Source: Escherichia coli
Lineage (GTDB): Bacteria > Pseudomonadota > Gammaproteobacteria > Enterobacterales > Enterobacteriaceae
Strand: one strand, 5' to 3'
DNA: 64,000 bases
Assembly (NCBI RefSeq): GCF_016903815.1
Contig: NZ_CP069972.1
The notes below the pieces were generated by a model, which saw nothing but the letters and a program-made list of their open reading frames with translations, was not told the origin of the DNA and did not search any database. The position numbers were made by a program, and so were the translations under genes. Positions 2,146-44,637 of the stretch are shown piece after piece; position 1 is the stretch's first letter, and each line of letters opens with the position of its first letter.

Positions 2146-4383
2146 ATGTCGCCATCCCCCTTAATTAAATCCTGTGTGGCCTTTGCCCATACGCAATTCT
2201 ATTCCGGAGTTACTGTGAAAATTTTACTTCGCGCACTCTGTGCAGGCCTTGCTATATCCTCACTGCCGGCAATGGCTTCAGTGACCTATCAGGATATTGT
2301 GTCTGCCGCAACCAATCCTGACGATCTGTCTCGCCAGGCGCTGGTCACGATATTCGGTGATGTAGTCACCAATCCACTGTCAACCAGCGCCCCCACTCTG
2401 ATCGGAAGCATGTTCGGGGCGTTCAACAGTATCATCGCCGTACTTGCCGTTGTCTGGTTTATGTTCATTGGTATCCGTCATGTTGTGCGTTCGGGGCATC
2501 AGGGACAGGTATTCAGCACCGGACGCGATATCGTCGGCACACTGAGTGTCGTTGCAGGTTTTCTGATGATCGTTCCAACCGGAAATGGCTGGAGTATCGC
2601 TCAGCTCATTATGTTATGGGGCGCATCGATAATGGGGGTTGGGTCCGCCAATGTGATGGTGCAACTTGCCGCTGATAATATCGCAAATGGTTATTCAATG
2701 ACTGTACAGCCAGTTCAGGCATCCACACGAACAGCAGCGCGTGGCATTTTTGAAATGGAACTGTGTAAGTATGCGGTTAACGCAGGACTAAATGATTTTA
2801 ATCAGACGGTCAAATCCTCGACTTCACTGATGACAGAATCAGCTAAAACCGCCAGTGGTAATTACACTGTCACGGTATCCAATGGCAGCGGTATCTGTGG
2901 TTCAGCCAGCCTGTCAGTAGAAGGAAACGGAACAACAGATCAATCGACGATTGGAAAATTCTTTAATCCCTTCAGTAAAAACGAATACAGCGGTGTTATC
3001 TCAGCACAACGTGCAGCCATGGATAATATGATTAGCGACATGGACAACGCTGCCAGTGAGTTTGTGACAACATTTCTGGAAAAAAGAAATTCTGGCAACG
3101 GAACATTGCCGGATATCGAGACACGGATTCAGAGAGCAGCCGATGAGTATGAACGCGCTGTACAAAAATCGCTACCTATTGATAACGGAGAACAATCCAG
3201 GAAAGAAGCTCTCAAGTCTTATCTCACAACCTATGGATGGGTGACGCTTGGCGCGTGGTATCAGACCTTTGCCACTGCTAACCAGCGTCTGGCAGAGCTG
3301 GCTGACAGAGCTCCAGCTGTAACTTCAATGTCATCACTTGGGGAAGTTGGCGATACTGATTTATTTAGTGCTGTTATGGGGGCATACAAGACTCAATTAC
3401 AGAACTCCACATATACTCCAACGATAGGAACGATAACAACTCAAGATGAAAGTAATGCAGCTAATAGCACAGACCCACAAAGTGTGGTCATGAAAAGTAT
3501 AGCGCCAACCATATTAAAATGGACAAACCAAGCTGCTACTGAATGGTCAGGAACAGGAACAACCAGCAACCAAGTTAACCCATTAATTAAGATGAAAAAC
3601 ATCGGCGATTATACATTGGGTACAACAGAAATTCTCTGGACAGGATATACAACTGTCAGAGTTCTCGCGACAATGGGTGATAACTCTATTTTCGGAAAGG
3701 CTGTTAATTTGTTCTCTGGATTACCTAAAGGATTTGTTGCTCTGCTGGATGCTGCAGCTCCCCCAATATATTTCTTGTTGTTCCTGTTGTTTTGTGCGGG
3801 TTTTTCCTTATCAATTTACCTACCATTTATACCATTCATTTTCTGGATGACAGGCATTGGGAACTGGATAGTAAGCGTATTAATAGGATGCACCGCCGGG
3901 CCTCTGTGGGCAGCAACACATCTAGGAACATCAGAGGACAGAGGAAGTCGAGCAGCTTACGGATATATATACTTAATTGACAGCATGATAAGACCACCTC
4001 TCATGGTATTCGGTTTCTTTTTTGCCTCTGTCGCCATCATTGCCGTCGGCACAATATTAAACTCACTGTTTGGCGCAGCACTAGTTAACGTACAGGTAAA
4101 ATCATTAACAGGGATATTCAGCCTTGCCGGGTTCCTGCTAATTTACGCCCGTATGTGTACAACGTCTGTAGCTGCAATATTTGCTTTACAAGCATATCTT
4201 CCTGACCATGTTATCAATTTCTTGGGTGGTAGAGATGGTGTAAATACTCTTGGCAACCTCACCTCATCAGTAAAAGATATTTTTGCAGGTTCTAATAGAA
4301 ATATTAGACACAGCCCTGGAGTTAGAGAGGACAGACTAAAAAATGTCACAAAGGATGATAATAAAGATGGAATAAAAGGATAA
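2146..4383 (+). CDS. traY: TraY-like polytopic inner-membrane transfer protein (entry-exclusion target in IncI1)
   Basis: 745-aa ORF with many hydrophobic segments in N- and C-terminal thirds; alternative GTG start at 2215 has a better RBS (GGAG) and gives a signal-peptide-like N-terminus; excA-like gene directly downstream. Confidence 0.55.
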   Translation: MSPSPLIKSCVAFAHTQFYSGVTVKILLRALCAGLAISSLPAMASVTYQDIVSAATNPDDLSRQALVTIFGDVVTNPLSTSAPTLIGSMFGAFNSIIAVLAVVWFMFIGIRHVVRSGHQGQVFSTGRDIVGTLSVVAGFLMIVPTGNGWSIAQLIMLWGASIMGVGSANVMVQLAADNIANGYSMTVQPVQASTRTAARGIFEMELCKYAVNAGLNDFNQTVKSSTSLMTESAKTASGNYTVTVSNGSGICGSASLSVEGNGTTDQSTIGKFFNPFSKNEYSGVISAQRAAMDNMISDMDNAASEFVTTFLEKRNSGNGTLPDIETRIQRAADEYERAVQKSLPIDNGEQSRKEALKSYLTTYGWVTLGAWYQTFATANQRLAELADRAPAVTSMSSLGEVGDTDLFSAVMGAYKTQLQNSTYTPTIGTITTQDESNAANSTDPQSVVMKSIAPTILKWTNQAATEWSGTGTTSNQVNPLIKMKNIGDYTLGTTEILWTGYTTVRVLATMGDNSIFGKAVNLFSGLPKGFVALLDAAAPPIYFLLFLLFCAGFSLSIYLPFIPFIFWMTGIGNWIVSVLIGCTAGPLWAATHLGTSEDRGSRAAYGYIYLIDSMIRPPLMVFGFFFASVAIIAVGTILNSLFGAALVNVQVKSLTGIFSLAGFLLIYARMCTTSVAAIFALQAYLPDHVINFLGGRDGVNTLGNLTSSVKDIFAGSNRNIRHSPGVREDRLKNVTKDDNKDGIKG

Positions 4384-35833: not shown

Positions 35834-36156
35834 GGGAATTCTCCTCTCACATGCGGCCTCCATCAGGCCGTGCCGCACCTGTTACCGGGCGACCGCATAC
35901 GAATGCAGGTGCGGCCCCGAAGCCGCAGCGCGTGGAGGAGGAACGACGAAACGTGACCGGGTGAGGAGGCCGGCGACAGCGACACACTTGCATCGGATGC
36001 AGCCCGGTTAACGTGCCGGCACGGCCTGGGTAACCAGGTATTTTGTCCACAGAACCGTGCACAAAATGCTGTGGATAAGCTGGACACAGCAGCCCACAGC
36101 AGGCATACAGCCACACACTCAGAGAATTGAGCGTTTTTTAGTCACAACAATGACAT

Positions 36157-36203
36157 TTGACTGTGTGCGGATTCAGTTATTAGAATACTGTATAAACATA
36201 CAG
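36157..36203 (+). promoter_or_regulatory. impCAB promoter with LexA (SOS) box
   Basis: -35 TTGACT (36157-36162), -10 TAGAAT (36181-36186), then perfect SOS box CTGTATAAACATACAG (36188-36203). Confidence 0.75.
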
Positions 36204-36227
36204 CATAAAGAAAAGGGAGATGAGAAC

Positions 36228-36476
36228 ATGATCCGCATTGAAATTCTTTTCGACCGCCAGAGCACAAAAAACCTCAAATCAGGCACACTTCAGGCGCTAC
36301 AGAATGAAATCGAACAACGTCTGAAACCACACTACCCGGAAATCTGGCTGCGTATAGACCAGGGCAGCGCCCCGTCTGTATCTGTCACAGGAGCCCGCAA
36401 CGACAAGGATAAAGAACGTATCCTGTCTCTGCTGGAAGAAATCTGGCAGGACGACAGCTGGCTGCCTGCAGCATGA
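36228..36476 (+). CDS. impC: ImpC (82 aa), first gene of the impCAB operon
   Basis: ATG at 36228 after AAGGGAG; small protein preceding umuD-like and umuC-like genes. Confidence 0.75.
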   Translation: MIRIEILFDRQSTKNLKSGTLQALQNEIEQRLKPHYPEIWLRIDQGSAPSVSVTGARNDKDKERILSLLEEIWQDDSWLPAA

Positions 36477-36910
36477 GTACCGTTTATCACCGTCCGGCTG
36501 ACCCTTCAGGCGATGACAGTTACGTGCGACCGTTGTTTGCCGATCGTTGCCAGGCCGGTTTTCCTTCGCCTGCCACTGATTATGCTGAGCAGGAACTGGA
36601 TCTGAACAGCTATTGCATCAGCAGACCTGCAGCCACCTTCTTTCTGCGCGCCAGCGGTGAATCGATGAACCAGGCTGGCGTGCAGAATGGTGATCTGCTG
36701 GTAGTGGACAGGGCCGAAAAACCACAACACGGGGACATCGTTATCGCTGAGATCGACGGTGAGTTCACCGTCAAACGACTGCTGTTGCGCCCACGCCCGG
36801 CACTGGAGCCGGTTTCAGACAGCCCGGAGTTCCGCACACTGTATCCGGAAAACATCTGTATTTTTGGTGTTGTCACTCACGTGATACACAGGACGCGGGA
36901 GTTACGCTGA
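36473..36910 (+). CDS. impA: ImpA, UmuD-like S24 peptidase (145 aa)
   Basis: LexA/UmuD-type Ser-Lys dyad context (ASGESM ... K); ATGA overlap with impC stop. Confidence 0.85.
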   Translation: MSTVYHRPADPSGDDSYVRPLFADRCQAGFPSPATDYAEQELDLNSYCISRPAATFFLRASGESMNQAGVQNGDLLVVDRAEKPQHGDIVIAEIDGEFTVKRLLLRPRPALEPVSDSPEFRTLYPENICIFGVVTHVIHRTRELR

Positions 36911-38181
36911 TGTTTGCACTGGCTGATATCAACAGTTTCTACGCCTCATGTGAAAAAGTTTTCCGCCCGGACCTTCGCAACGAACCGGTCATCGTACTCA
37001 GCAATAACGATGGCTGTGTGATCGCGCGCAGCCCGGAGGCAAAAGCCCTTGGCATCAGAATGGGGCAGCCCTGGTTTCAGGTGAGACAAATGCGCCTGGA
37101 GAAGAAAATACATGTATTTTCCAGCAATTATGCGCTGTACCACAGCATGAGCCAACGGGTTATGGCTGTTCTGGAGTCGCTTTCTCCCGCAGTTGAGCCC
37201 TACTCAATTGATGAAATGTTCATTGATTTGCGGGGGATAAATCATTGCATCTCTCCGGAGATTTTTGGTCATCAGCTCAGGGAACAGGTAAAGAGCTGGA
37301 CAGGACTCACCATGGGGGTGGGCATTGCGCCTACAAAAACGCTGGCTAAAAGTGCCCAGTGGGCAACAAAGCAATGGCCACAGTTTTCCGGTGTGGTCGC
37401 GCTGACGGCAGAAAACCGTAATCGGATCTTGAAGCTACTGGGGTTGCAGCCAGTTGGTGAGGTCTGGGGAGTAGGACGCAGACTGACGGAAAAGCTGAAT
37501 GCGCTGGGTATTAACACAGCACTGCAGCTGGCGCAGGCTAACACGGCATTCATCCGGAAAAACTTCAGCGTCATTCTTGAGCGTACGGTACGCGAACTCA
37601 ACGGCGAGTCCTGCATATCTCTGGAAGAAGCACCGCCGGCAAAACAGCAGATTGTCTGTAGTCGCAGTTTTGGTGAACGAATCACAGACAAAGATGCCAT
37701 GCACCAGGCTGTTGTTCAGTATGCAGAGCGGGCCGCAGAGAAACTACGTGGGGAGCGTCAGTATTGCCGGCAGGTGACGACATTTGTACGGACATCCCCC
37801 TTTGCAGTAAAAGAACCCTGTTACAGCAATGCCGCTGTGGAAAAGCTTCCATTGCCCACACAGGACAGCCGGGACATTATTGCCGCAGCATGCAGAGCGT
37901 TAAACCATGTCTGGCGTGAAGGGTACCGCTATATGAAGGCAGGTGTCATGCTGGCTGATTTCACACCATCGGGTATAGCGCAGCCGGGATTATTTGATGA
38001 AATCCAGCCCCGTAAAAACAGTGAAAAGTTAATGAAAACACTCGATGAACTGAACCAGTCGGGAAAAGGGAAAGTGTGGTTTGCGGGGCGAGGAACCGCC
38101 CCTGAATGGCAAATGAAACGGGAAATGCTTTCTCCTGCGTATACCACCAGATGGACAGATTTGCCAGTAGCCCAGTTATGA
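36910..38181 (+). CDS. impB: ImpB, UmuC-like Y-family translesion polymerase (423 aa)
   Basis: N-terminal MFALADINSFYASCE typical of UmuC/DinB family; overlaps impA stop. Confidence 0.85.
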   Translation: MFALADINSFYASCEKVFRPDLRNEPVIVLSNNDGCVIARSPEAKALGIRMGQPWFQVRQMRLEKKIHVFSSNYALYHSMSQRVMAVLESLSPAVEPYSIDEMFIDLRGINHCISPEIFGHQLREQVKSWTGLTMGVGIAPTKTLAKSAQWATKQWPQFSGVVALTAENRNRILKLLGLQPVGEVWGVGRRLTEKLNALGINTALQLAQANTAFIRKNFSVILERTVRELNGESCISLEEAPPAKQQIVCSRSFGERITDKDAMHQAVVQYAERAAEKLRGERQYCRQVTTFVRTSPFAVKEPCYSNAAVEKLPLPTQDSRDIIAAACRALNHVWREGYRYMKAGVMLADFTPSGIAQPGLFDEIQPRKNSEKLMKTLDELNQSGKGKVWFAGRGTAPEWQMKREMLSPAYTTRWTDLPVAQL

Positions 38182-39326: not shown

Positions 39327-39330
39327 CACC

Positions 39331-39396
39331 TTGTTATCTTGTTATCTTGTTATCTTGTTATCTTGTTATCTTGTTATCTTGTTATCTTGTTATCTT
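39331..39396. repeat. Second array of about eight tandem TTGTTATC repeats downstream of the par genes
   Basis: Same 8-bp unit as 38203-38276. Confidence 0.65.
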
Positions 39397-39451
39397 CAAT
39401 GTATTTTAGGATGACCTATGTTGAATAGAACCTAAAACAAAACAAATATTA

Positions 39452-39743
39452 ATAGGGGTCCGCTTGGAAAAGGGAAATTTTCCCACGCTAAGAGAATTGA
39501 GTTGAACGAGTGGTTACATCCAGGCCAGCTAACTCACTGAACGTAAAGGCTGTACGAAATGTTCCGGCCGTCCGATAACCGTTTGGCTTACTTCCGTACA
39601 TTCCCTTGCGTAGATGTACAGAATTGTACGATTTCGGACACCAAAACCGCTGTTGTCCCGCCATTCTGGCGATTCCTGAAAGTCCTTTGACTAAAAAATA
39701 GTCTTAACGTGGTTTATTTTCCGAATTCCAAGCGGACCCCTAT
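39452..39743. mobile_element. MITE-like element (about 290 bp) with perfect 18-bp terminal inverted repeats
   Basis: ATAGGGGTCCGCTTGGAA at 39452-39469 and its exact reverse complement at 39726-39743; no ORF inside. Confidence 0.4.
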
Positions 39744-39764
39744 CAGGCCTGCCGTGGGGATTTT

Positions 39765-39926
39765 GTGGTGCGTCTCGACGGCAGCACCTGTCTGCAGTTA
39801 TGGAATAAAGAAGGCAGGGTGGTACGCCGGGAGGGCGATCCGCTGGAAGTGGCGCAGTGGCTGCTGGCCTGTCATGACGCAGGAATAGAAGTTCGCGTAC
39901 AGATAAATGAAAGTGCCGCTCCGTAA
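39765..39926 (+). CDS. Possible small ORF or 3' remnant of a disrupted gene next to the MITE-like element
   Basis: Open frame ending VRLDGSTCLQLWNKEGRVVRREGDPLEVAQWLLACHDAGIEVRVQINESAAP; only GTG starts available; frame runs into the element's right inverted repeat. Confidence 0.25.
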   Translation: MVRLDGSTCLQLWNKEGRVVRREGDPLEVAQWLLACHDAGIEVRVQINESAAP

Positions 39927-39945
39927 GAACACGCCTGTGCACGGT

Positions 39946-40293
39946 TTACACATCATCCCATGGTGGCAGCCGGTTAACTTTCCTGCGCCACCAGTGGAAA
40001 GAGGCCATGCACAGTCCGAACAAAAAACCCCCCGTGATACTTATAATAATGGCCTCACCTGCCACCATTCCTGACGGCCCCCAGTAGATAAACCACATTG
40101 CACATCCCCAGGAAATGCCCCATAAGCCCCCCGTCAGCACCGTGACCTGCCAGAACGGCATAAAGGGTAATGGCGGAAGCCGGATACCCAGCCGCCATAG
40201 AATACGCAGAAGAGGAGGGGCATAATTGCTCCGCCACATCTTTTTGCTGTCCATCAGGGCAATGGCCCGGGCTTTTTTCTGCTCAAAGGTCAC
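39946..40293 (-). CDS. Hypothetical membrane protein (115 aa)
   Basis: GTG start with SD GGAGG 7 nt upstream; two or three TM helices; adjacent to the colicin immunity gene. Confidence 0.45.
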   Translation of the reverse strand: MTFEQKKARAIALMDSKKMWRSNYAPPLLRILWRLGIRLPPLPFMPFWQVTVLTGGLWGISWGCAMWFIYWGPSGMVAGEAIIISITGGFLFGLCMASFHWWRRKVNRLPPWDDV

Positions 40294-40421
40294 AGGAGCA
40301 CCTCCGTTCCATGATGTAAACGTGACACAGCTTATTGTTATTGATTATTATTATCATGCTGTGGTTATGTTGTCATGCATCAGTACACTGACAAAAGTGC
40401 AAAAGAAAGGAAAACAGGCAG

Positions 40422-40757
40422 ATGAACAGAAAATATTATTTTAATAATATGTGGTGGGGATGGGTGACGGGGGGATATATGCTGTATATGTCATGGGATT
40501 ATGATTTTAAATACAGATTACTGTTCTGGTGTATTTCTCTCTGCGGAATGGTTTTGTATCCAGTTGCAAAATGGTATATTGAGGATACAGCTCTGAAATT
40601 TACCCGGCCTGATTTCTGGAACAGCGGTTTTTTTGCTGATACACCTGGAAAAATGGGATTGCTTGCTGTTTATACGGGTACTGTTTTCATATTATCTCTT
40701 CCGTTAAGTATGATATATACTCTTTCTGTTATTATAAAAAGGCTGTCTGTAAGATAG
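40422..40757 (+). CDS. iia: Colicin Ia immunity protein (111 aa)
   Basis: MNRKYYFNNMWWGWVTGGYMLYMSWDY...; convergent with and immediately downstream of the colicin gene; 111 aa as for Ia immunity (recollection). Confidence 0.8.
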   Translation: MNRKYYFNNMWWGWVTGGYMLYMSWDYDFKYRLLFWCISLCGMVLYPVAKWYIEDTALKFTRPDFWNSGFFADTPGKMGLLAVYTGTVFILSLPLSMIYTLSVIIKRLSVR

Positions 40758-40778
40758 ACAGCCTGTCTTATATTTTAT

Positions 40779-42659
40779 TTAAATACCCCAGAACTTATTC
40801 GCTTTTTCCACAAGCGATTCATCAATCAGCGCACCGGTGACAGCCATCAGTAAACCATACCCGATAATGCCTAAAGCGCTTCCGGTAAGAATACTGAAGA
40901 CCAGTGCAACAAGAGCCGTTGCGGCATTGCCTGCTATAATGGCTTCTGTTTTAACAAAAAGAGGACGCCAGTTCTCTGTCCGGACAGCCTTACCAAACTC
41001 AGTGATCCAGTCAGCAAGACTTGTAAATTTTCCTGCATATCCCAGTCCCCGACTGAATCTGTTCAGATTAGACGATATATCAGACAGCTTCACAGACTCA
41101 AGGGCTGCGGCAATCGCTGCACGATCTTTTGCATTAATTTTTTTGTTAATGTCAGCCCGGTACTTTTCATACGTTTTTAATGCCTCTTCAACATTACGTA
41201 TTTTCTTCCCTTTAGCCTGCCCGGCCATCTCTCTGGCTAACTGCTCAGCTTTTGCACCATATTTTTCTGAAACTGATTTCAGGAACTCTGTTGTGAAATT
41301 AATTGCGTCTTTCGTTTCCTTCAGTTCATCCTGTTTTCTTTTCTCTTCCGCTATCTTCTGATTGATGCCGGCAAGCTGGTTACGGATATTCTCTTTTTCC
41401 TTCAACAGGGCATTAAGAGCGTCATTTGCATGCTTTTGCTCATTTGTTCTGGCACTGAGGTTATTTCTCGCCGAATTTACCGCAGATTCAGCAGAGGTGA
41501 TTTTATTTCTGGCATCAAGCAATCTTTGCCGTAACTTATCCCATTCAGCAACTTCAGCATTATAAATTTTCTTGTCACCTTCCACATCCTCTGTCACCAC
41601 CGGATTCCGGTCATTCAGAATATTGCGTTTATAGTCCAGACCGGAATGGGTCAGAAGATAATTCAGGTTTGCACGGTTATCGATGACTGCGCTGGTTGTG
41701 ATTTTTATCGTACCGGCAAATCTCGGATCACCGCTCACAACAATAGAATGATTTGTTGATGAACGCCCCGGGAATTTTTCAGGGGAAACTATCGTTTTGC
41801 CGTCAGGCGTGTTTTTCTGTTGCGTCAGCTGTTGTTCAGCTCTGGTTAATGCATTACGGGCCGTGTTAAGCGATTCCGTCACTGAACTGAGTTTATTCCG
41901 GGCCTCTGAAATGGCCCTGTCATTCCGTGTCTGCTGCCCGAGCAGACGGGCCTGTTGTGCATCAAGAACGGCAAGGGCTGCCCCGCCATTTTTTTCCAGC
42001 TCTGACAACCGCGTGTCCAGAATACCTTTTCTGCGCTCGTATTCAGCAAGCATATCAGCGGCCTTCTTGTCTGCGTTCTGCGCATCCTTCTGCCGTTTTT
42101 CAGCCTGTTCGATTAACGACCTGGCCTCCCGGGGAGATATACGAAGAGAATCAGCATCAGCAAAGAGCATCCGGCTCTCTGTATGCAGCCGGAGGGCATC
42201 ATATCCGGCGATTTCAGTACGGAATCCGTATTCTCTCAGCTCTGCCTGCAGGAGTCTGAACTCCTGTCGTGTAATATCAGCGGCATCTGCGTTTCCGGCA
42301 CGGAGTGTTTTCAGTGTGTTTTCATCTTTTTCCCTTGCAGCAATCGCCGCAGAGAGGCGTTTTCCGGCTTCAGTACGCTTATTCTCATTCTCTTTCTGCT
42401 GCGCGCTGAGCGTGTTTTTGTACGCTGTGATTTCCTTGTCCCTTTTTTCGATATCACTTCGGGTTGGGGAATCATCAACCCACTCGTTTCCGCCCCAGAT
42501 GGTTTTGTTCCCGAAGGAACTCCATGCAGGCGGGGTACCATGAAAGACATCGACACGTGGAGGGTTTACATAAATATCAACGGCCATAATTTCATGGCCA
42601 TCTGAATCATACCCCAGCGATTCTGCACCGGGATTTGTAATACGTACAGGGTCAGACAT
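40779..42659 (-). CDS. cia: Colicin Ia, pore-forming (626 aa)
   Basis: MSDPVRITNPGAESLGYDSDGHEIMAVDIYVNPPRVDVFHGTPPAW... N-terminus and C-terminal hydrophobic hairpin of the Ia/Ib family; Ia vs Ib call rests on the immunity protein. Confidence 0.85.
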   Translation of the reverse strand: MSDPVRITNPGAESLGYDSDGHEIMAVDIYVNPPRVDVFHGTPPAWSSFGNKTIWGGNEWVDDSPTRSDIEKRDKEITAYKNTLSAQQKENENKRTEAGKRLSAAIAAREKDENTLKTLRAGNADAADITRQEFRLLQAELREYGFRTEIAGYDALRLHTESRMLFADADSLRISPREARSLIEQAEKRQKDAQNADKKAADMLAEYERRKGILDTRLSELEKNGGAALAVLDAQQARLLGQQTRNDRAISEARNKLSSVTESLNTARNALTRAEQQLTQQKNTPDGKTIVSPEKFPGRSSTNHSIVVSGDPRFAGTIKITTSAVIDNRANLNYLLTHSGLDYKRNILNDRNPVVTEDVEGDKKIYNAEVAEWDKLRQRLLDARNKITSAESAVNSARNNLSARTNEQKHANDALNALLKEKENIRNQLAGINQKIAEEKRKQDELKETKDAINFTTEFLKSVSEKYGAKAEQLAREMAGQAKGKKIRNVEEALKTYEKYRADINKKINAKDRAAIAAALESVKLSDISSNLNRFSRGLGYAGKFTSLADWITEFGKAVRTENWRPLFVKTEAIIAGNAATALVALVFSILTGSALGIIGYGLLMAVTGALIDESLVEKANKFWGI

Positions 42660-42699
42660 TCGGTATCTCCTTCATCCTCTGAGGAAAACAAATGAATTA

Positions 42700-42760
42700 A
42701 CTGCTTACGCATATGGATACATATACAGTATTAATTTATTAAGGAGAAAATGGCATGTCA
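42700..42760 (-). promoter_or_regulatory. Colicin promoter with LexA-box-like operator
   Basis: Minus-strand TTGACA-17-TAAATT followed by TACTGTATATGTATCCATATGCGTAAGCAG (CTGT...CAG elements). Confidence 0.55.
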
Positions 42761-42937
42761 AGATTTGATGATAGTGATTATCATTAACATGAAGTGATGT
42801 TACACCGTTCAGAAAGCCTGCTGACGCTGTGGCAGCATCACAGTCTGGGTATTCTCTGGTGCAATACAAAAACCGGACTTTCCCGTAACAACAGACAATG
42901 TTACGGGAAAAGTTACAGAACTGAGCCACAAAATATC

Positions 42938-44284
42938 TCAGTACCTGAGATGCATAAAAACACCGTACATATGTTTCTTAAAAGGGGGATGCTCGTTATC
43001 CAGCCATTTCGGTGGATCGGTATGCAGAACACCAATCTGCTTCATGCCGGTATGCTGCCTGGATTTTCTCGCGCAGTAATCACTGTCTTCATATCCCATC
43101 GTTTCGATGACCACTCTGGCCGTCTTTCCGTCAGGAGCCCTTGCTGTGACAATGAAATCCGGCAGTACATATTTCTTTTCACCATTAACATAAACTTCTG
43201 TATCAAACAGGGGCCTTTCCAGACTTAATTCCGGCGTACCTGGCTTTCTTTTAAGCCAGCTGGCCACATTCAGAAGAGCAGTGAGCGTGTTTCGTTCCAG
43301 TTTGCTGTCCACAGGCACCGGACATGTCAGTTGATAAAGAGCATGAGCATACCCTTCACTGCAGATGATTCTGCCATCGGCACTCCGGCAAAAAGCAAGA
43401 ATAACCCAGTAAGGGGGACGTATTCCGCCCTGCGCTTCACCATTAATACTGATCCCCCGCACAGGTCTGATGACCTGAATATTACCGTTCGCCCAGTGAA
43501 TTTCCACAGCATCACGACAGATGTGCTGCGCCATAAAAATCTGAAAGAACATATGCTTTCTTCTGGCAGGCCAGTGTCGTTCTGAATTCTCCAGCGTTTC
43601 CATTAACCGCTCCTGAGACCTTTCAGACATTCCTGGCCGGAAATGGATAATTTCAGATAAGGCTCTTCCCCGAATATACTCCTGCTGTAGTGTAACCTGC
43701 CGTATGGCATCAAGACACTCACGATAATTAGTCCGGATACGGGGATTAGCCAGGGAATCCAGTTTATTCAGCCCTGCATCTTCAATAAGCGACAGGAGTA
43801 AACGGCCAAGGCGCGGACGTTTCTTGCGAACGGAGGAGCGCTCACCATTATGGTAAGCAGAGCGGGCCTGCAGTCTGATAACAGAATTACTGTCATCAGG
43901 TGGTAAAAAGTTTCTGTAATTTATACGGGTGCTAACGGGATGCCGGCTTGCTCCGAAGGATGTTTCCTCTTCATTTCCGGATAACTGACGATACATGGGG
44001 CATTCAGGTGCATGCTCATGATTAAAACTGGACAGATAAAGAGTACCCGTATTGTTTTTAAGAGCAGCAAAATTCATGGCCGGCGAATCTCCCGGAATAC
44101 AGTCACACTGTAACCATGCATCATACTCACGCATTTCCCGGAGAAGATCATTGGCCAGGTTATGTTGTGCCATGGTTGCTGGCCTTTTCAGTCCACAGAC
44201 CGTCTTTACTGCAGTCTCTTCCTCACTGCTAAGCTCCCGAATCACTTTGCCCCGGGGATTCTTCTTTACAAGTATCATTGGCAT
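42938..44284 (-). CDS. Hypothetical protein (448 aa) between colicin and replicon
   Basis: ATG at 44284 with AGGAG upstream; no recognised domain. Confidence 0.45.
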   Translation of the reverse strand: MPMILVKKNPRGKVIRELSSEEETAVKTVCGLKRPATMAQHNLANDLLREMREYDAWLQCDCIPGDSPAMNFAALKNNTGTLYLSSFNHEHAPECPMYRQLSGNEEETSFGASRHPVSTRINYRNFLPPDDSNSVIRLQARSAYHNGERSSVRKKRPRLGRLLLSLIEDAGLNKLDSLANPRIRTNYRECLDAIRQVTLQQEYIRGRALSEIIHFRPGMSERSQERLMETLENSERHWPARRKHMFFQIFMAQHICRDAVEIHWANGNIQVIRPVRGISINGEAQGGIRPPYWVILAFCRSADGRIICSEGYAHALYQLTCPVPVDSKLERNTLTALLNVASWLKRKPGTPELSLERPLFDTEVYVNGEKKYVLPDFIVTARAPDGKTARVVIETMGYEDSDYCARKSRQHTGMKQIGVLHTDPPKWLDNEHPPFKKHMYGVFMHLRY

Positions 44285-44637
44285 AATGAAAGCACTCCTT
44301 ATGTACATGCTTAAACAGTAAGTAAAATATACAAAGAACCCCCCATGAAACAAAGGCAGAGATGAACTGTGCGCCCCGATATCTTCTTCTGATATCCTTT
44401 CAAATGAATTGTTTTTATTTATATCATGACAACATTAAAGTGAGAGAATATATCAACCATGTTTCTGTCAGGGTTCAGTAGAATATCAATTCGACTGTCA
44501 CGCCATAACTGTAACTACCTCGAGTATAAATATTCAGAGAATGGACTTATTAGCCATGAAAAATCACCTGATGGGAAATTTACTAATTTATGGATTGTGA
44601 TATTATTAAAGAGTAAAACCAGCCAGCCGAGGTATTT

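Follow-up and report, generated by a model that had tools for sequence, protein, structure and literature searches.

A 64,000-nucleotide stretch of Escherichia coli DNA (NCBI RefSeq assembly GCF_016903815.1, contig NZ_CP069972.1; the whole stretch is called the window here) carries a colicin gene, a convergent immunity gene and, divergent from the latter, a further small gene, ybaA, for a 115-residue membrane protein. What is that third gene doing beside a colicin? The sequence-only reading of this DNA took it for an extra gene, possibly a second immunity-like or accessory one. We find that the locus is a standard, already known colicin Ia determinant of IncI-type plasmids. We give roughly 60% probability to the reading in which ybaA is an autonomous, probably iron-regulated inner-membrane gene of the backbone shared by ColIa and ColIb plasmids, linked to the colicin genes by proximity and not as a second immunity gene. 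The three open reading frames (626, 111 and 115 residues) lie exactly where the sequence-only reading had placed them (list of open reading frames), and a hairpin separates the two convergent genes:

40779-42659, minus strand: cia, encoding colicin Ia (626 residues), ATG start; matches PDB 1CII and Pfam Colicin_Ia and Colicin
40422-40757, plus strand: imm, encoding the colicin Ia immunity protein (111 residues), ATG start; Pfam PF03526
39946-40293, minus strand: ybaA, encoding a DUF6404 family protein (115 residues), GTG start; Pfam PF19942
40740-40764, both strands: hairpin between the convergent imm and cia genes (terminator scan)

The 626-residue protein matches colicin Ia (PDB 1CII) with 1278 bits over residues 23-624 (602 residues) and the colicin Ib channel domain (8IOM, chain residues 1-195 of 205) with only 182 bits, and it is therefore colicin Ia, not Ib. 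It contains the receptor-binding Colicin_Ia (E 5e-51) and pore-forming Colicin (E 7e-48) domains of Pfam. The imm gene, directly 3' of the colicin gene and on the opposite strand, encodes a member of the colicin E1/microcin immunity family PF03526 (Pfam, E 2.6e-7), and it is labelled ‘colicin 1A immunity protein’ in 99.5%-identical plasmids. The 1CII and Pfam matches and the plasmid annotation thus confirm the colicin Ia locus with convergent immunity gene that had been read from the letters. The hairpin between the two genes is terminator-like in either direction, with an 11-bp stem on the plus strand and a 9-bp stem on the minus strand. Across the full 3.4 kb, the closest plasmid is pSA53IncI2 (98.4% identity), and the window resembles IncI-type plasmids. 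Colicin Ia and Ib determinants of IncI1-type plasmids such as ColIb-P9, pCol1B9 and pS88 have the same order (yagA, cia, imm, ybaA) and likewise comprise a 626-residue colicin, a convergent imm gene for 111 residues and a promoter with LexA and Fur control, without a lysis gene. The best-matching plasmids are 98-99.5% identical at the nucleotide level, and the colicin genes here show no substantive difference from theirs. By contrast, two hypothetical genes that lie past ybaA in colicin I plasmids have been removed here by a 631-bp deletion.

Is the 115-residue reading frame a gene at all? It is, and far beyond a chance open reading frame. Its product matches the Pfam family DUF6404 (PF19942) at E 2.7e-37 (128.1 bits against a cut-off of 27.6), with residues 1-114 aligned to profile positions 1-114 of 115, and phrog_31022 at E 2.1e-37; NCBIfam and PADLOC gave no match. 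Like the proteins grouped as DUF6404, ybaA or phrog_31022, it is a single domain of 115 residues covered over its full length. RefSeq annotates this 348-bp coding sequence beside imm as ‘DUF6404 family protein’. The name ybaA is used in some plasmid records and by a study of plasmid pS88, which applies it to pS88106 and lists that gene beside cia and imm. The start codon follows a strong ribosome-binding site:

40301-40305, minus strand: Shine-Dalgarno sequence GGAGG of ybaA, with a 7-nt spacer to the GTG

The Shine-Dalgarno region does not vary among the four plasmid contexts that were aligned (Ia, Ib, IncF and ColV), and codon 2 carries a synonymous change, ACC to ACT, in the IncF and ColV copies (alignment A1). 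The full-length DUF6404 match and the GGAGG at 7 nt bear out a real gene that diverges from imm and starts at GTG, but the gene is not an extra one: ybaA is already annotated, and in about 2000 plasmids it is the gene that normally accompanies the colicin I locus. Literature searches found no mention of DUF6404, nothing on ybaA in work on the pCol1B9 transcriptome and, for ybaA together with colicin, only the pS88 study, which used reverse-transcription quantitative PCR (RT-qPCR).

If ybaA were a second immunity gene, its product might be expected to look like one or to follow the toxin, and we find neither. The DUF6404 family alignment, compared by hhalign with the immunity proteins of colicins Ia and Ib, gave probabilities of 0.3% and 0.1%, so that no relation is detectable, and DUF6404 is the only Pfam family that YbaA matches at E <= 0.01, PF03526 being absent. 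YbaA shares with the PF03526 immunity proteins of pore-forming colicins a length of ~110-115 residues, a membrane location and a gene beside that of a pore-forming colicin, but it lacks sequence or profile similarity to them and differs in its two predicted transmembrane helices and its long, conserved N-terminal segment. Against pND11_107 and ColIb-P9, blastn finds homology at 39741-40388 (95-97% identity) and at 41325-44400 (98-99%) and nothing between. One segment is thus the sole part of the locus that is non-homologous between ColIa and ColIb plasmids:

40389-41324: Ia-specific cassette, comprising imm and the last ~181 codons of cia, which encode the pore-forming domain (blastn)

Because homology breaks at 40388/40389, ybaA, its Shine-Dalgarno sequence and the entire divergent promoter region, with both promoters, sit in the shared backbone, ~30 bp outside the cassette. 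One ybaA allele, 95-97% identical at the nucleotide level, accordingly stands beside both the Ia and the Ib imm genes, and ybaA does not co-vary with toxin type. An immunity protein specific for the Ia pore is not expected as an identical allele next to the Ib pore. Placed outside the recombining Ia/Ib specificity cassette, ybaA is not a specificity determinant, and no pairing or co-variation with a cognate pore domain was seen in these comparisons. Protection does not seem to require it either: a plasmid with imm only was used to protect E. coli BL21 during ColIb overexpression (PMC3879352).

The wider family tells a similar story. An exhaustive search returned 762 DUF6404 representatives of 50%-identity clusters, and we sampled 37 loci from Klebsiella, Xenorhabdus, Serratia, Salmonella, Enterobacter, Kluyvera, Erwinia, Pantoea, Raoultella, Yersinia and two Burkholderiales. 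Within 5 kb of these homologues in other genera, tblastn found cia, imm or YagA at none of the 37 loci, and all-against-all clustering of the open reading frames over the same distance found no conserved partner family; the largest neighbour cluster occurred at 7 loci, in varying position and orientation. The surroundings range from a prophage region to islands with fimbrial, TonB-receptor and H-NS genes. Chromosomal and prophage members, 50-60% identical, stand alone in variable islands, whereas the plasmid clade alone lies beside a colicin locus. With no colicin or conserved partner nearby, DUF6404 looks like a solitary gene of variable islands and not one half of a toxin/immunity pair. These 37 colicin-free loci, the hhalign probabilities, the allele common to Ia and Ib plasmids and a frameshift in ColIb-P9 (below) leave the suggestion of a second immunity-like or accessory gene unsupported.

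What the protein itself looks like agrees with the small membrane protein that the sequence-only reading described, presumably one of the inner membrane. An alignment of 27 DUF6404 members (43-97% identity) has 22 invariant columns, which cluster N-terminally as M-W-R-S-N-Y-A-P-P-L-L-R-x-L-W-x-x-G-x-x-x-P-P-x-P-F; the corresponding motif of YbaA is MWRSNYAPPLLR..PPLPF. All residues invariant in the family are present in YbaA (W20, S22-L29, W33, G36, P40-P41, W62-G63, M66, W71, G93, P110 and W112); of these, W62-G63, M66 and W71 belong to the first hydrophobic helix, and P110 and W112 are part of the C-terminal tail. AlphaFold2, run on the family alignment, predicts helices at residues 3-16, 27-34, 47-71 and 78-106 with a mean predicted local distance difference test score of 90.8, and two of these, at about 47-71 and 78-106, are transmembrane in the model. 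Since Lys and Arg abound in the first 45 residues and in the C-terminal tail, and the short loop at 72-77 is uncharged, the positive-inside rule points to a two-helix transmembrane hairpin with both termini probably in the cytoplasm (N-in/C-in). Fold searches of the PDB and BFVD with YbaA returned non-significant matches only, and a profile search of PDB sequences with the family returned nothing.

Superficially, a hairpin of this kind, basic at its C-terminus, is reminiscent of a class II holin, and colicin lysis proteins and phage holins are likewise small, membrane-associated and encoded near a toxin or lysis function. Unlike colicin lysis proteins, YbaA lacks a signal peptide and a lipobox on inspection of its sequence; unlike lysis genes, ybaA lies beyond imm, is divergent, has its own predicted promoter without a LexA box and is not in the SOS operon. 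Comparison with the colicin lysis proteins therefore gives no ground for placing ybaA among them. Unlike holin genes, it has no endolysin gene nearby, and the holin fold matches are non-significant (E > 1).

Why, then, does ybaA stay beside imm? Of 72,556 plasmid records, 2054 carry ybaA over at least 80% of its length; it is contiguous with the Ia imm gene in 954 of the 2054 and with the Ib imm gene in 648, against 337 plasmids only with complete cia and imm. The ybaA-imm pair therefore outlives the colicin gene as an ‘orphan immunity’ module, and such modules are also found on IncF and IncHI2 plasmids. Only 128 bp with overlapping divergent promoters lie between the two genes, which is reason enough for ybaA to be co-inherited with imm. 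The ~450 other copies include those of ColV plasmids, and the one examined (NZ_CP126941.1) is frameshifted and loses homology at the same boundary. In this avian pathogenic E. coli ColV plasmid (L012 4376-4784), the ybaA backbone stops at about window position 40388, followed by unrelated sequence and then cvaA, and ybaA lacks 1 nt near its 5' end. The coincidence of the ColV, Ia and Ib end points suggests that a junction just upstream of imm is used recurrently in recombination.

Iron provides the second thread. The promoter regions of cia and of the ybaA-imm pair contain the following sites:

42733-42761, minus strand: cia promoter, -35 TTGACA (42761-42756), 17-nt spacer, -10 TAAATT (42738-42733); consensus scan 10/12
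42711-42730, minus strand: LexA (SOS) box TACTGTATATGTATCCATAT, 15/20 to consensus, directly 3' of the cia -10
42770-42788, minus strand: Fur box GTTAATGATAATCACTATC, 17/19 to consensus, 8 nt upstream of the cia -35
40347-40376, minus strand: predicted sigma-70 promoter of ybaA, -35 ATGACA, 18-nt spacer, -10 AATAAT; consensus scan 10/12
40322-40351, plus strand: predicted sigma-70 promoter of imm, -35 GTGACA, 18-nt spacer, -10 TATTAT; consensus scan 10/12
40337-40355, minus strand: Fur-box-like site GATAATAATAATCAATAAC, 16/19 to consensus

At cia, the 15/20 LexA box after the -10 bears out the ‘SOS-box-like promoter’ of the sequence-only reading, which was incomplete in that it overlooked two Fur boxes. 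This LexA box ranks second in the window by consensus match. The cia Fur box is the top Fur consensus match in the 64-kb window, and its score was reached by none of 5000 dinucleotide shuffles. The cia promoter thus appears, from these matches, to carry both LexA and Fur operator sites; the regulation itself is published, LexA- and Fur-dependent control being stated for ColIa and ColIb and a Fur site being described for the cib promoter (PMC3879352).

After the cia site, the window's next-best match to the Fur consensus lies between ybaA and imm, so that the top two Fur matches of the 64 kb are at the cia promoter and at the divergent ybaA/imm promoters, a detail that is new here. No shuffle among 5000 of the ybaA-imm intergenic region, preserving dinucleotides, scored 16/19. 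The site covers the -10 hexamers of both predicted promoters, and it and the ybaA promoter are invariant across the four plasmid contexts; the predicted imm promoter falls in the segment common to Ia and Ib plasmids (39741-40388). The best LexA match upstream of ybaA reaches only 10/20. We propose on this basis that ybaA is Fur-repressed. In pS88, where pS88106 corresponds to ybaA by gene order and name, the transcript was detected by RT-qPCR, and its level went up under dipyridyl (5.25-fold), in serum (4.87-fold) and in urine (8.9-fold), changes that were non-significant (p 0.096-0.197); with dipyridyl, cia rose 5.11-fold and imm 1.10-fold (PMC3438092). Upstream of the homologues in other genera, Fur-like boxes occur at 9 of the 37 loci against an intergenic background of 7%, a weak enrichment in which five of the nine boxed loci are close Serratia/Ewingella relatives with near-identical boxes and hence non-independent counts. 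The case for regulation by Fur across the family is for that reason suggestive only.

Selection on ybaA differs from that on its neighbours. Summed pairwise pN/pS (the ratio of nonsynonymous to synonymous polymorphism) is 0.66 for ybaA, 0.25 for imm and 0.10 for cia codons 1-440, values that come from 5-6 alleles for ybaA and imm and 4 for cia, with non-independent pairs. The Ib-linked ybaA allele carries R30C, at a nearly invariant position of the family, and W71R, at an invariant one. The gene also contains a frameshift hot spot:

40022-40033, minus strand: G6T6 homopolymer tract in ybaA codons 88-91 (A6C6 on the plus strand)

In ColIb-P9, ybaA is frameshifted in this tract (a G9 run; L051 10918), giving a 106-residue product without the end of the second transmembrane helix or the conserved tail, and the gene table of that record has no coding sequence there. 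Cluster P0021 (50 members) shares the ColIb-P9 frameshift product, and cluster P0020 (85 members) has a related frameshift that diverges at the same point. The tract could be a site of simple decay or a slippage-prone on/off site. Other clusters are disrupted as well, P0025 among them, and some look truncated by insertions; P0031 (535 members) is without the conserved N-terminus. Although the samples are small, all point to a gene that is probably not needed for colicin I production or immunity.

These observations can be assembled into a simple model. The cia gene would be transcribed from a promoter repressed by Fur and LexA, and imm, convergent to it, from a promoter of its own, the two transcription units sharing the terminator hairpin. 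On the far side of imm, ybaA would form an autonomous single-gene unit with its own sigma-70 promoter, whose -10 would lie under the Fur box, such that iron starvation would derepress it in parallel with cia. YbaA would be neither a colicin-specific immunity protein nor a requirement for colicin production or immunity.

Several points weigh against this model. First, ~78% of plasmid ybaA copies still adjoin a colicin I immunity gene, orphan modules included, and a functional ybaA-imm partnership would give the same linkage. This is the strongest argument for a functional tie, although the linkage is equally expected from the 128 bp of overlapping divergent promoters that the two genes share. 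Second, the Fur box may control imm and not ybaA, since it overlaps both promoters equally, and a function in common with cia could underlie the predicted co-regulation of the two genes by Fur. Third, the induction of ybaA in pS88 did not reach significance, and gene order and name are all that equate pS88106 with the 115-residue reading frame. Fourth, the case for decay has its own weaknesses: the pN/pS values come from few alleles; the ColIb-P9 sequence is an old one and its frameshift falls in a homopolymer run, yet a 50-member cluster has the same product; and most database alleles are intact, the 115-residue clusters P0001, P0004 and P0006 having 1842, 585 and 349 members. Finally, the literature searches turned up no experiment on ybaA and colicin sensitivity.

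Some of the same evidence could be read as a sign that YbaA assists colicin I systems of either type, as a membrane protein that Fur derepression makes available to limit self-intoxication; this sharpens the suggestion of the sequence-only reading. When iron starvation raises Cir, TonB and the colicin together, YbaA might act by damping TonB-dependent import or by assisting Imm. The tight and lasting linkage to imm over IncI, IncF and IncHI2 plasmids is what such a role would leave behind, as are the two leading Fur boxes of the 64 kb and the ~5-fold rise of both ybaA and cia, but not imm, when pS88 was given an iron chelator (PMC3438092). In a preprint, moreover, strain SL1344 deleted for cib and imm tolerates ColIb. 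The same preprint, however, reports equal tolerance in D23580 without pCol1B9 and traces the effect partly to CirA. Moreover, family members in other genera live without a colicin or immunity gene at all 37 sampled loci, ybaA is frameshifted in ColIb-P9 and many other plasmids, its plasmid alleles are under relaxed selection relative to imm and the protein has no similarity to immunity proteins. We therefore regard an accessory role as unlikely. The bolder version, in which YbaA as a Fur-controlled membrane protein confers protection or tolerance whatever the colicin type, for example via TonB/Cir-dependent uptake, strikes us as a long shot. If true, such protection would explain why ybaA persists beside both Ia and Ib imm genes, orphan modules too, and colicin I self-protection would gain in YbaA a second, general layer.

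Alternatively, ybaA on plasmids could be a functionless, decaying hitch-hiker from a chromosomal or prophage island, kept because it abuts the imm promoter. Its pN/pS of 0.66 and changes at family-invariant residues, the G6T6 frameshifts, insertion-like breaks, many truncated clusters and frameshifted ColV copy would all follow, and 78-bp remnants of the gene lie at 2196 places in E. coli chromosomes; the flanking hypothetical genes, too, are themselves deleted in the window. Decay of this kind sits poorly, however, with the predominance of intact 115-residue alleles (P0001, P0004, P0006), with a Shine-Dalgarno sequence, start codon and Fur-boxed promoter that are invariant in four plasmid contexts, with a transcript detected in pS88 and with a pN/pS still below 1, and we consider it unlikely.

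That YbaA is a phage-exclusion or abortive-infection membrane protein, for example part of the ColIb block of T5 and BF23 growth, is very improbable: the family does match PHROG phrog_31022, a Xenorhabdus prophage-region member lies beside genes for an Mrr-like nuclease and Arc/antirepressor proteins, a Serratia member lies near phage lysis genes, a 109.6-kb Klebsiella phage record holds another, the ColIb-P9 segment past ybaA contains accessory genes such as a DUF4238 gene, and ColIb ibfA and ibfB, neither of which could be located, inhibit BF23, but PADLOC gives no match, only 2 of 50,697 phage records hold homologues, no defence partner is conserved, the fold matches (small helical proteins such as holins) are non-significant, and ybaA is frameshifted in ColIb-P9, the very plasmid for which T5/BF23 exclusion was described.

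Under the preferred reading, of an autonomous backbone gene beside a standard colicin Ia determinant, the locus as it stands matters little: it is a textbook one, and its neighbour is annotated as ybaA or DUF6404 in thousands of plasmids. The picture is nevertheless tidied by placing ybaA just outside the recombining Ia/Ib specificity cassette, and the Fur-box-like site over the ybaA/imm promoters offers a cheap handle on a family of ~760 cluster representatives that has no known function. Should ybaA affect colicin or TonB-dependent uptake, it would be of moderate interest for work on bacteriocins and plasmid ecology.

Several further observations concern the family outside colicin plasmids. 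One of the two matching phage records is that of Klebsiella phage GArcari-2022b (L055; CP101896.1 84059-84400), whose DUF6404 homologue has 52.6% identity; CP101896.1 is a 109.6-kb circular, unannotated ‘phage’ record and may be a phage-plasmid. On metagenome contig ERR10300408 (L015 2641-8206), a homologue of 58% identity has a TonB-dependent receptor gene on either side and an iron-type ABC transporter downstream, with the whole set reading in one direction. No other context hints at iron uptake, and the region upstream of the homologue has no strong Fur box (10/19). In the chromosome NZ_CP027118.1, a 78-bp DUF6404 remnant at 3974972-3975049 (L019 5001-5078) is 94% identical to the ybaA 3' end, is annotated as a pseudogene and sits close to fecIR, with a phytase-like esterase gene on one side and an IS66 element on the other; in 5426 complete E. 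coli genomes, the 80-bp match turns up at 2196 chromosomal sites. Longer DUF6404 proteins (P0247, P0177, P0229 and others) showed no second Pfam domain, and the seeming fusions to PsiA and to LPG_synthase (P0111, P0112) can most likely be put down to artefacts at the junctions of truncated alleles.

On the other side of the colicin gene, directly upstream of the cia promoter, lies a gene that is conserved in ColIa and ColIb plasmids:

42938-44353, minus strand: yagA, encoding 448-471 residues

Its product has no matches in Pfam, NCBIfam, PHROGs or PADLOC, and its pN/pS over five plasmid alleles is 0.48. We considered an ancestral yagA-ybaA pair split by insertion of the colicin gene and rejected it. 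BLASTP found nothing for the 453-residue protein encoded upstream of a Klebsiella homologue, which is a lactonase-like beta-propeller and not a YagA relative, and the Mrr-like neighbour in Xenorhabdus is likewise unrelated to YagA.

Beyond ybaA, the deletion has left part of one flanking gene:

39741-39926, plus strand: 3' remnant (last ~60 codons) of a hypothetical gene for 196 residues, normally convergent to ybaA

By blastn against pSA53IncI2 (L002), window positions 39330-39740 correspond to 2732-3141 and 39741-40300 to 3773-4330, which places the junction of the 631-bp deletion at 39740/39741 (L002 3142-3772). The deletion takes a hypothetical gene for 84 residues and the first two thirds of that for 196 residues. 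Neither hypothetical protein belongs to a Pfam family; the 196-residue protein matches phrog_19460, whose function is not known, and a single marginal PADLOC match of the pair, to JetA (E 0.004), was ignored.

Some names were set aside. In the F plasmid, ‘ybaA’ seems to denote another gene, with a name taken from map position. IbfA was rejected as the identity of ybaA, the IncI1 IbfA being a 518-residue ATPase-TOPRIM protein. The pS88 names ydeA and ydfA were not used for the two flanking hypothetical genes, because naming of ColIb-P9 genes by map position, which the coordinates of yacA, yagA and ybaA suggest, would put those genes elsewhere.

Finally, the top LexA match in the window lies outside the colicin locus. 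This box, TACTGTATAAACATACAGCA at 36186-36205, scores 17/20 and contains the perfect palindrome CTGTATAAACATACAG. It lies upstream of three open reading frames, 36057-36476, 36473-36910 and 36910-38181, which by position correspond to the DinI-like, UmuD-like and Y-family polymerase (impCAB-type) genes of related plasmids.

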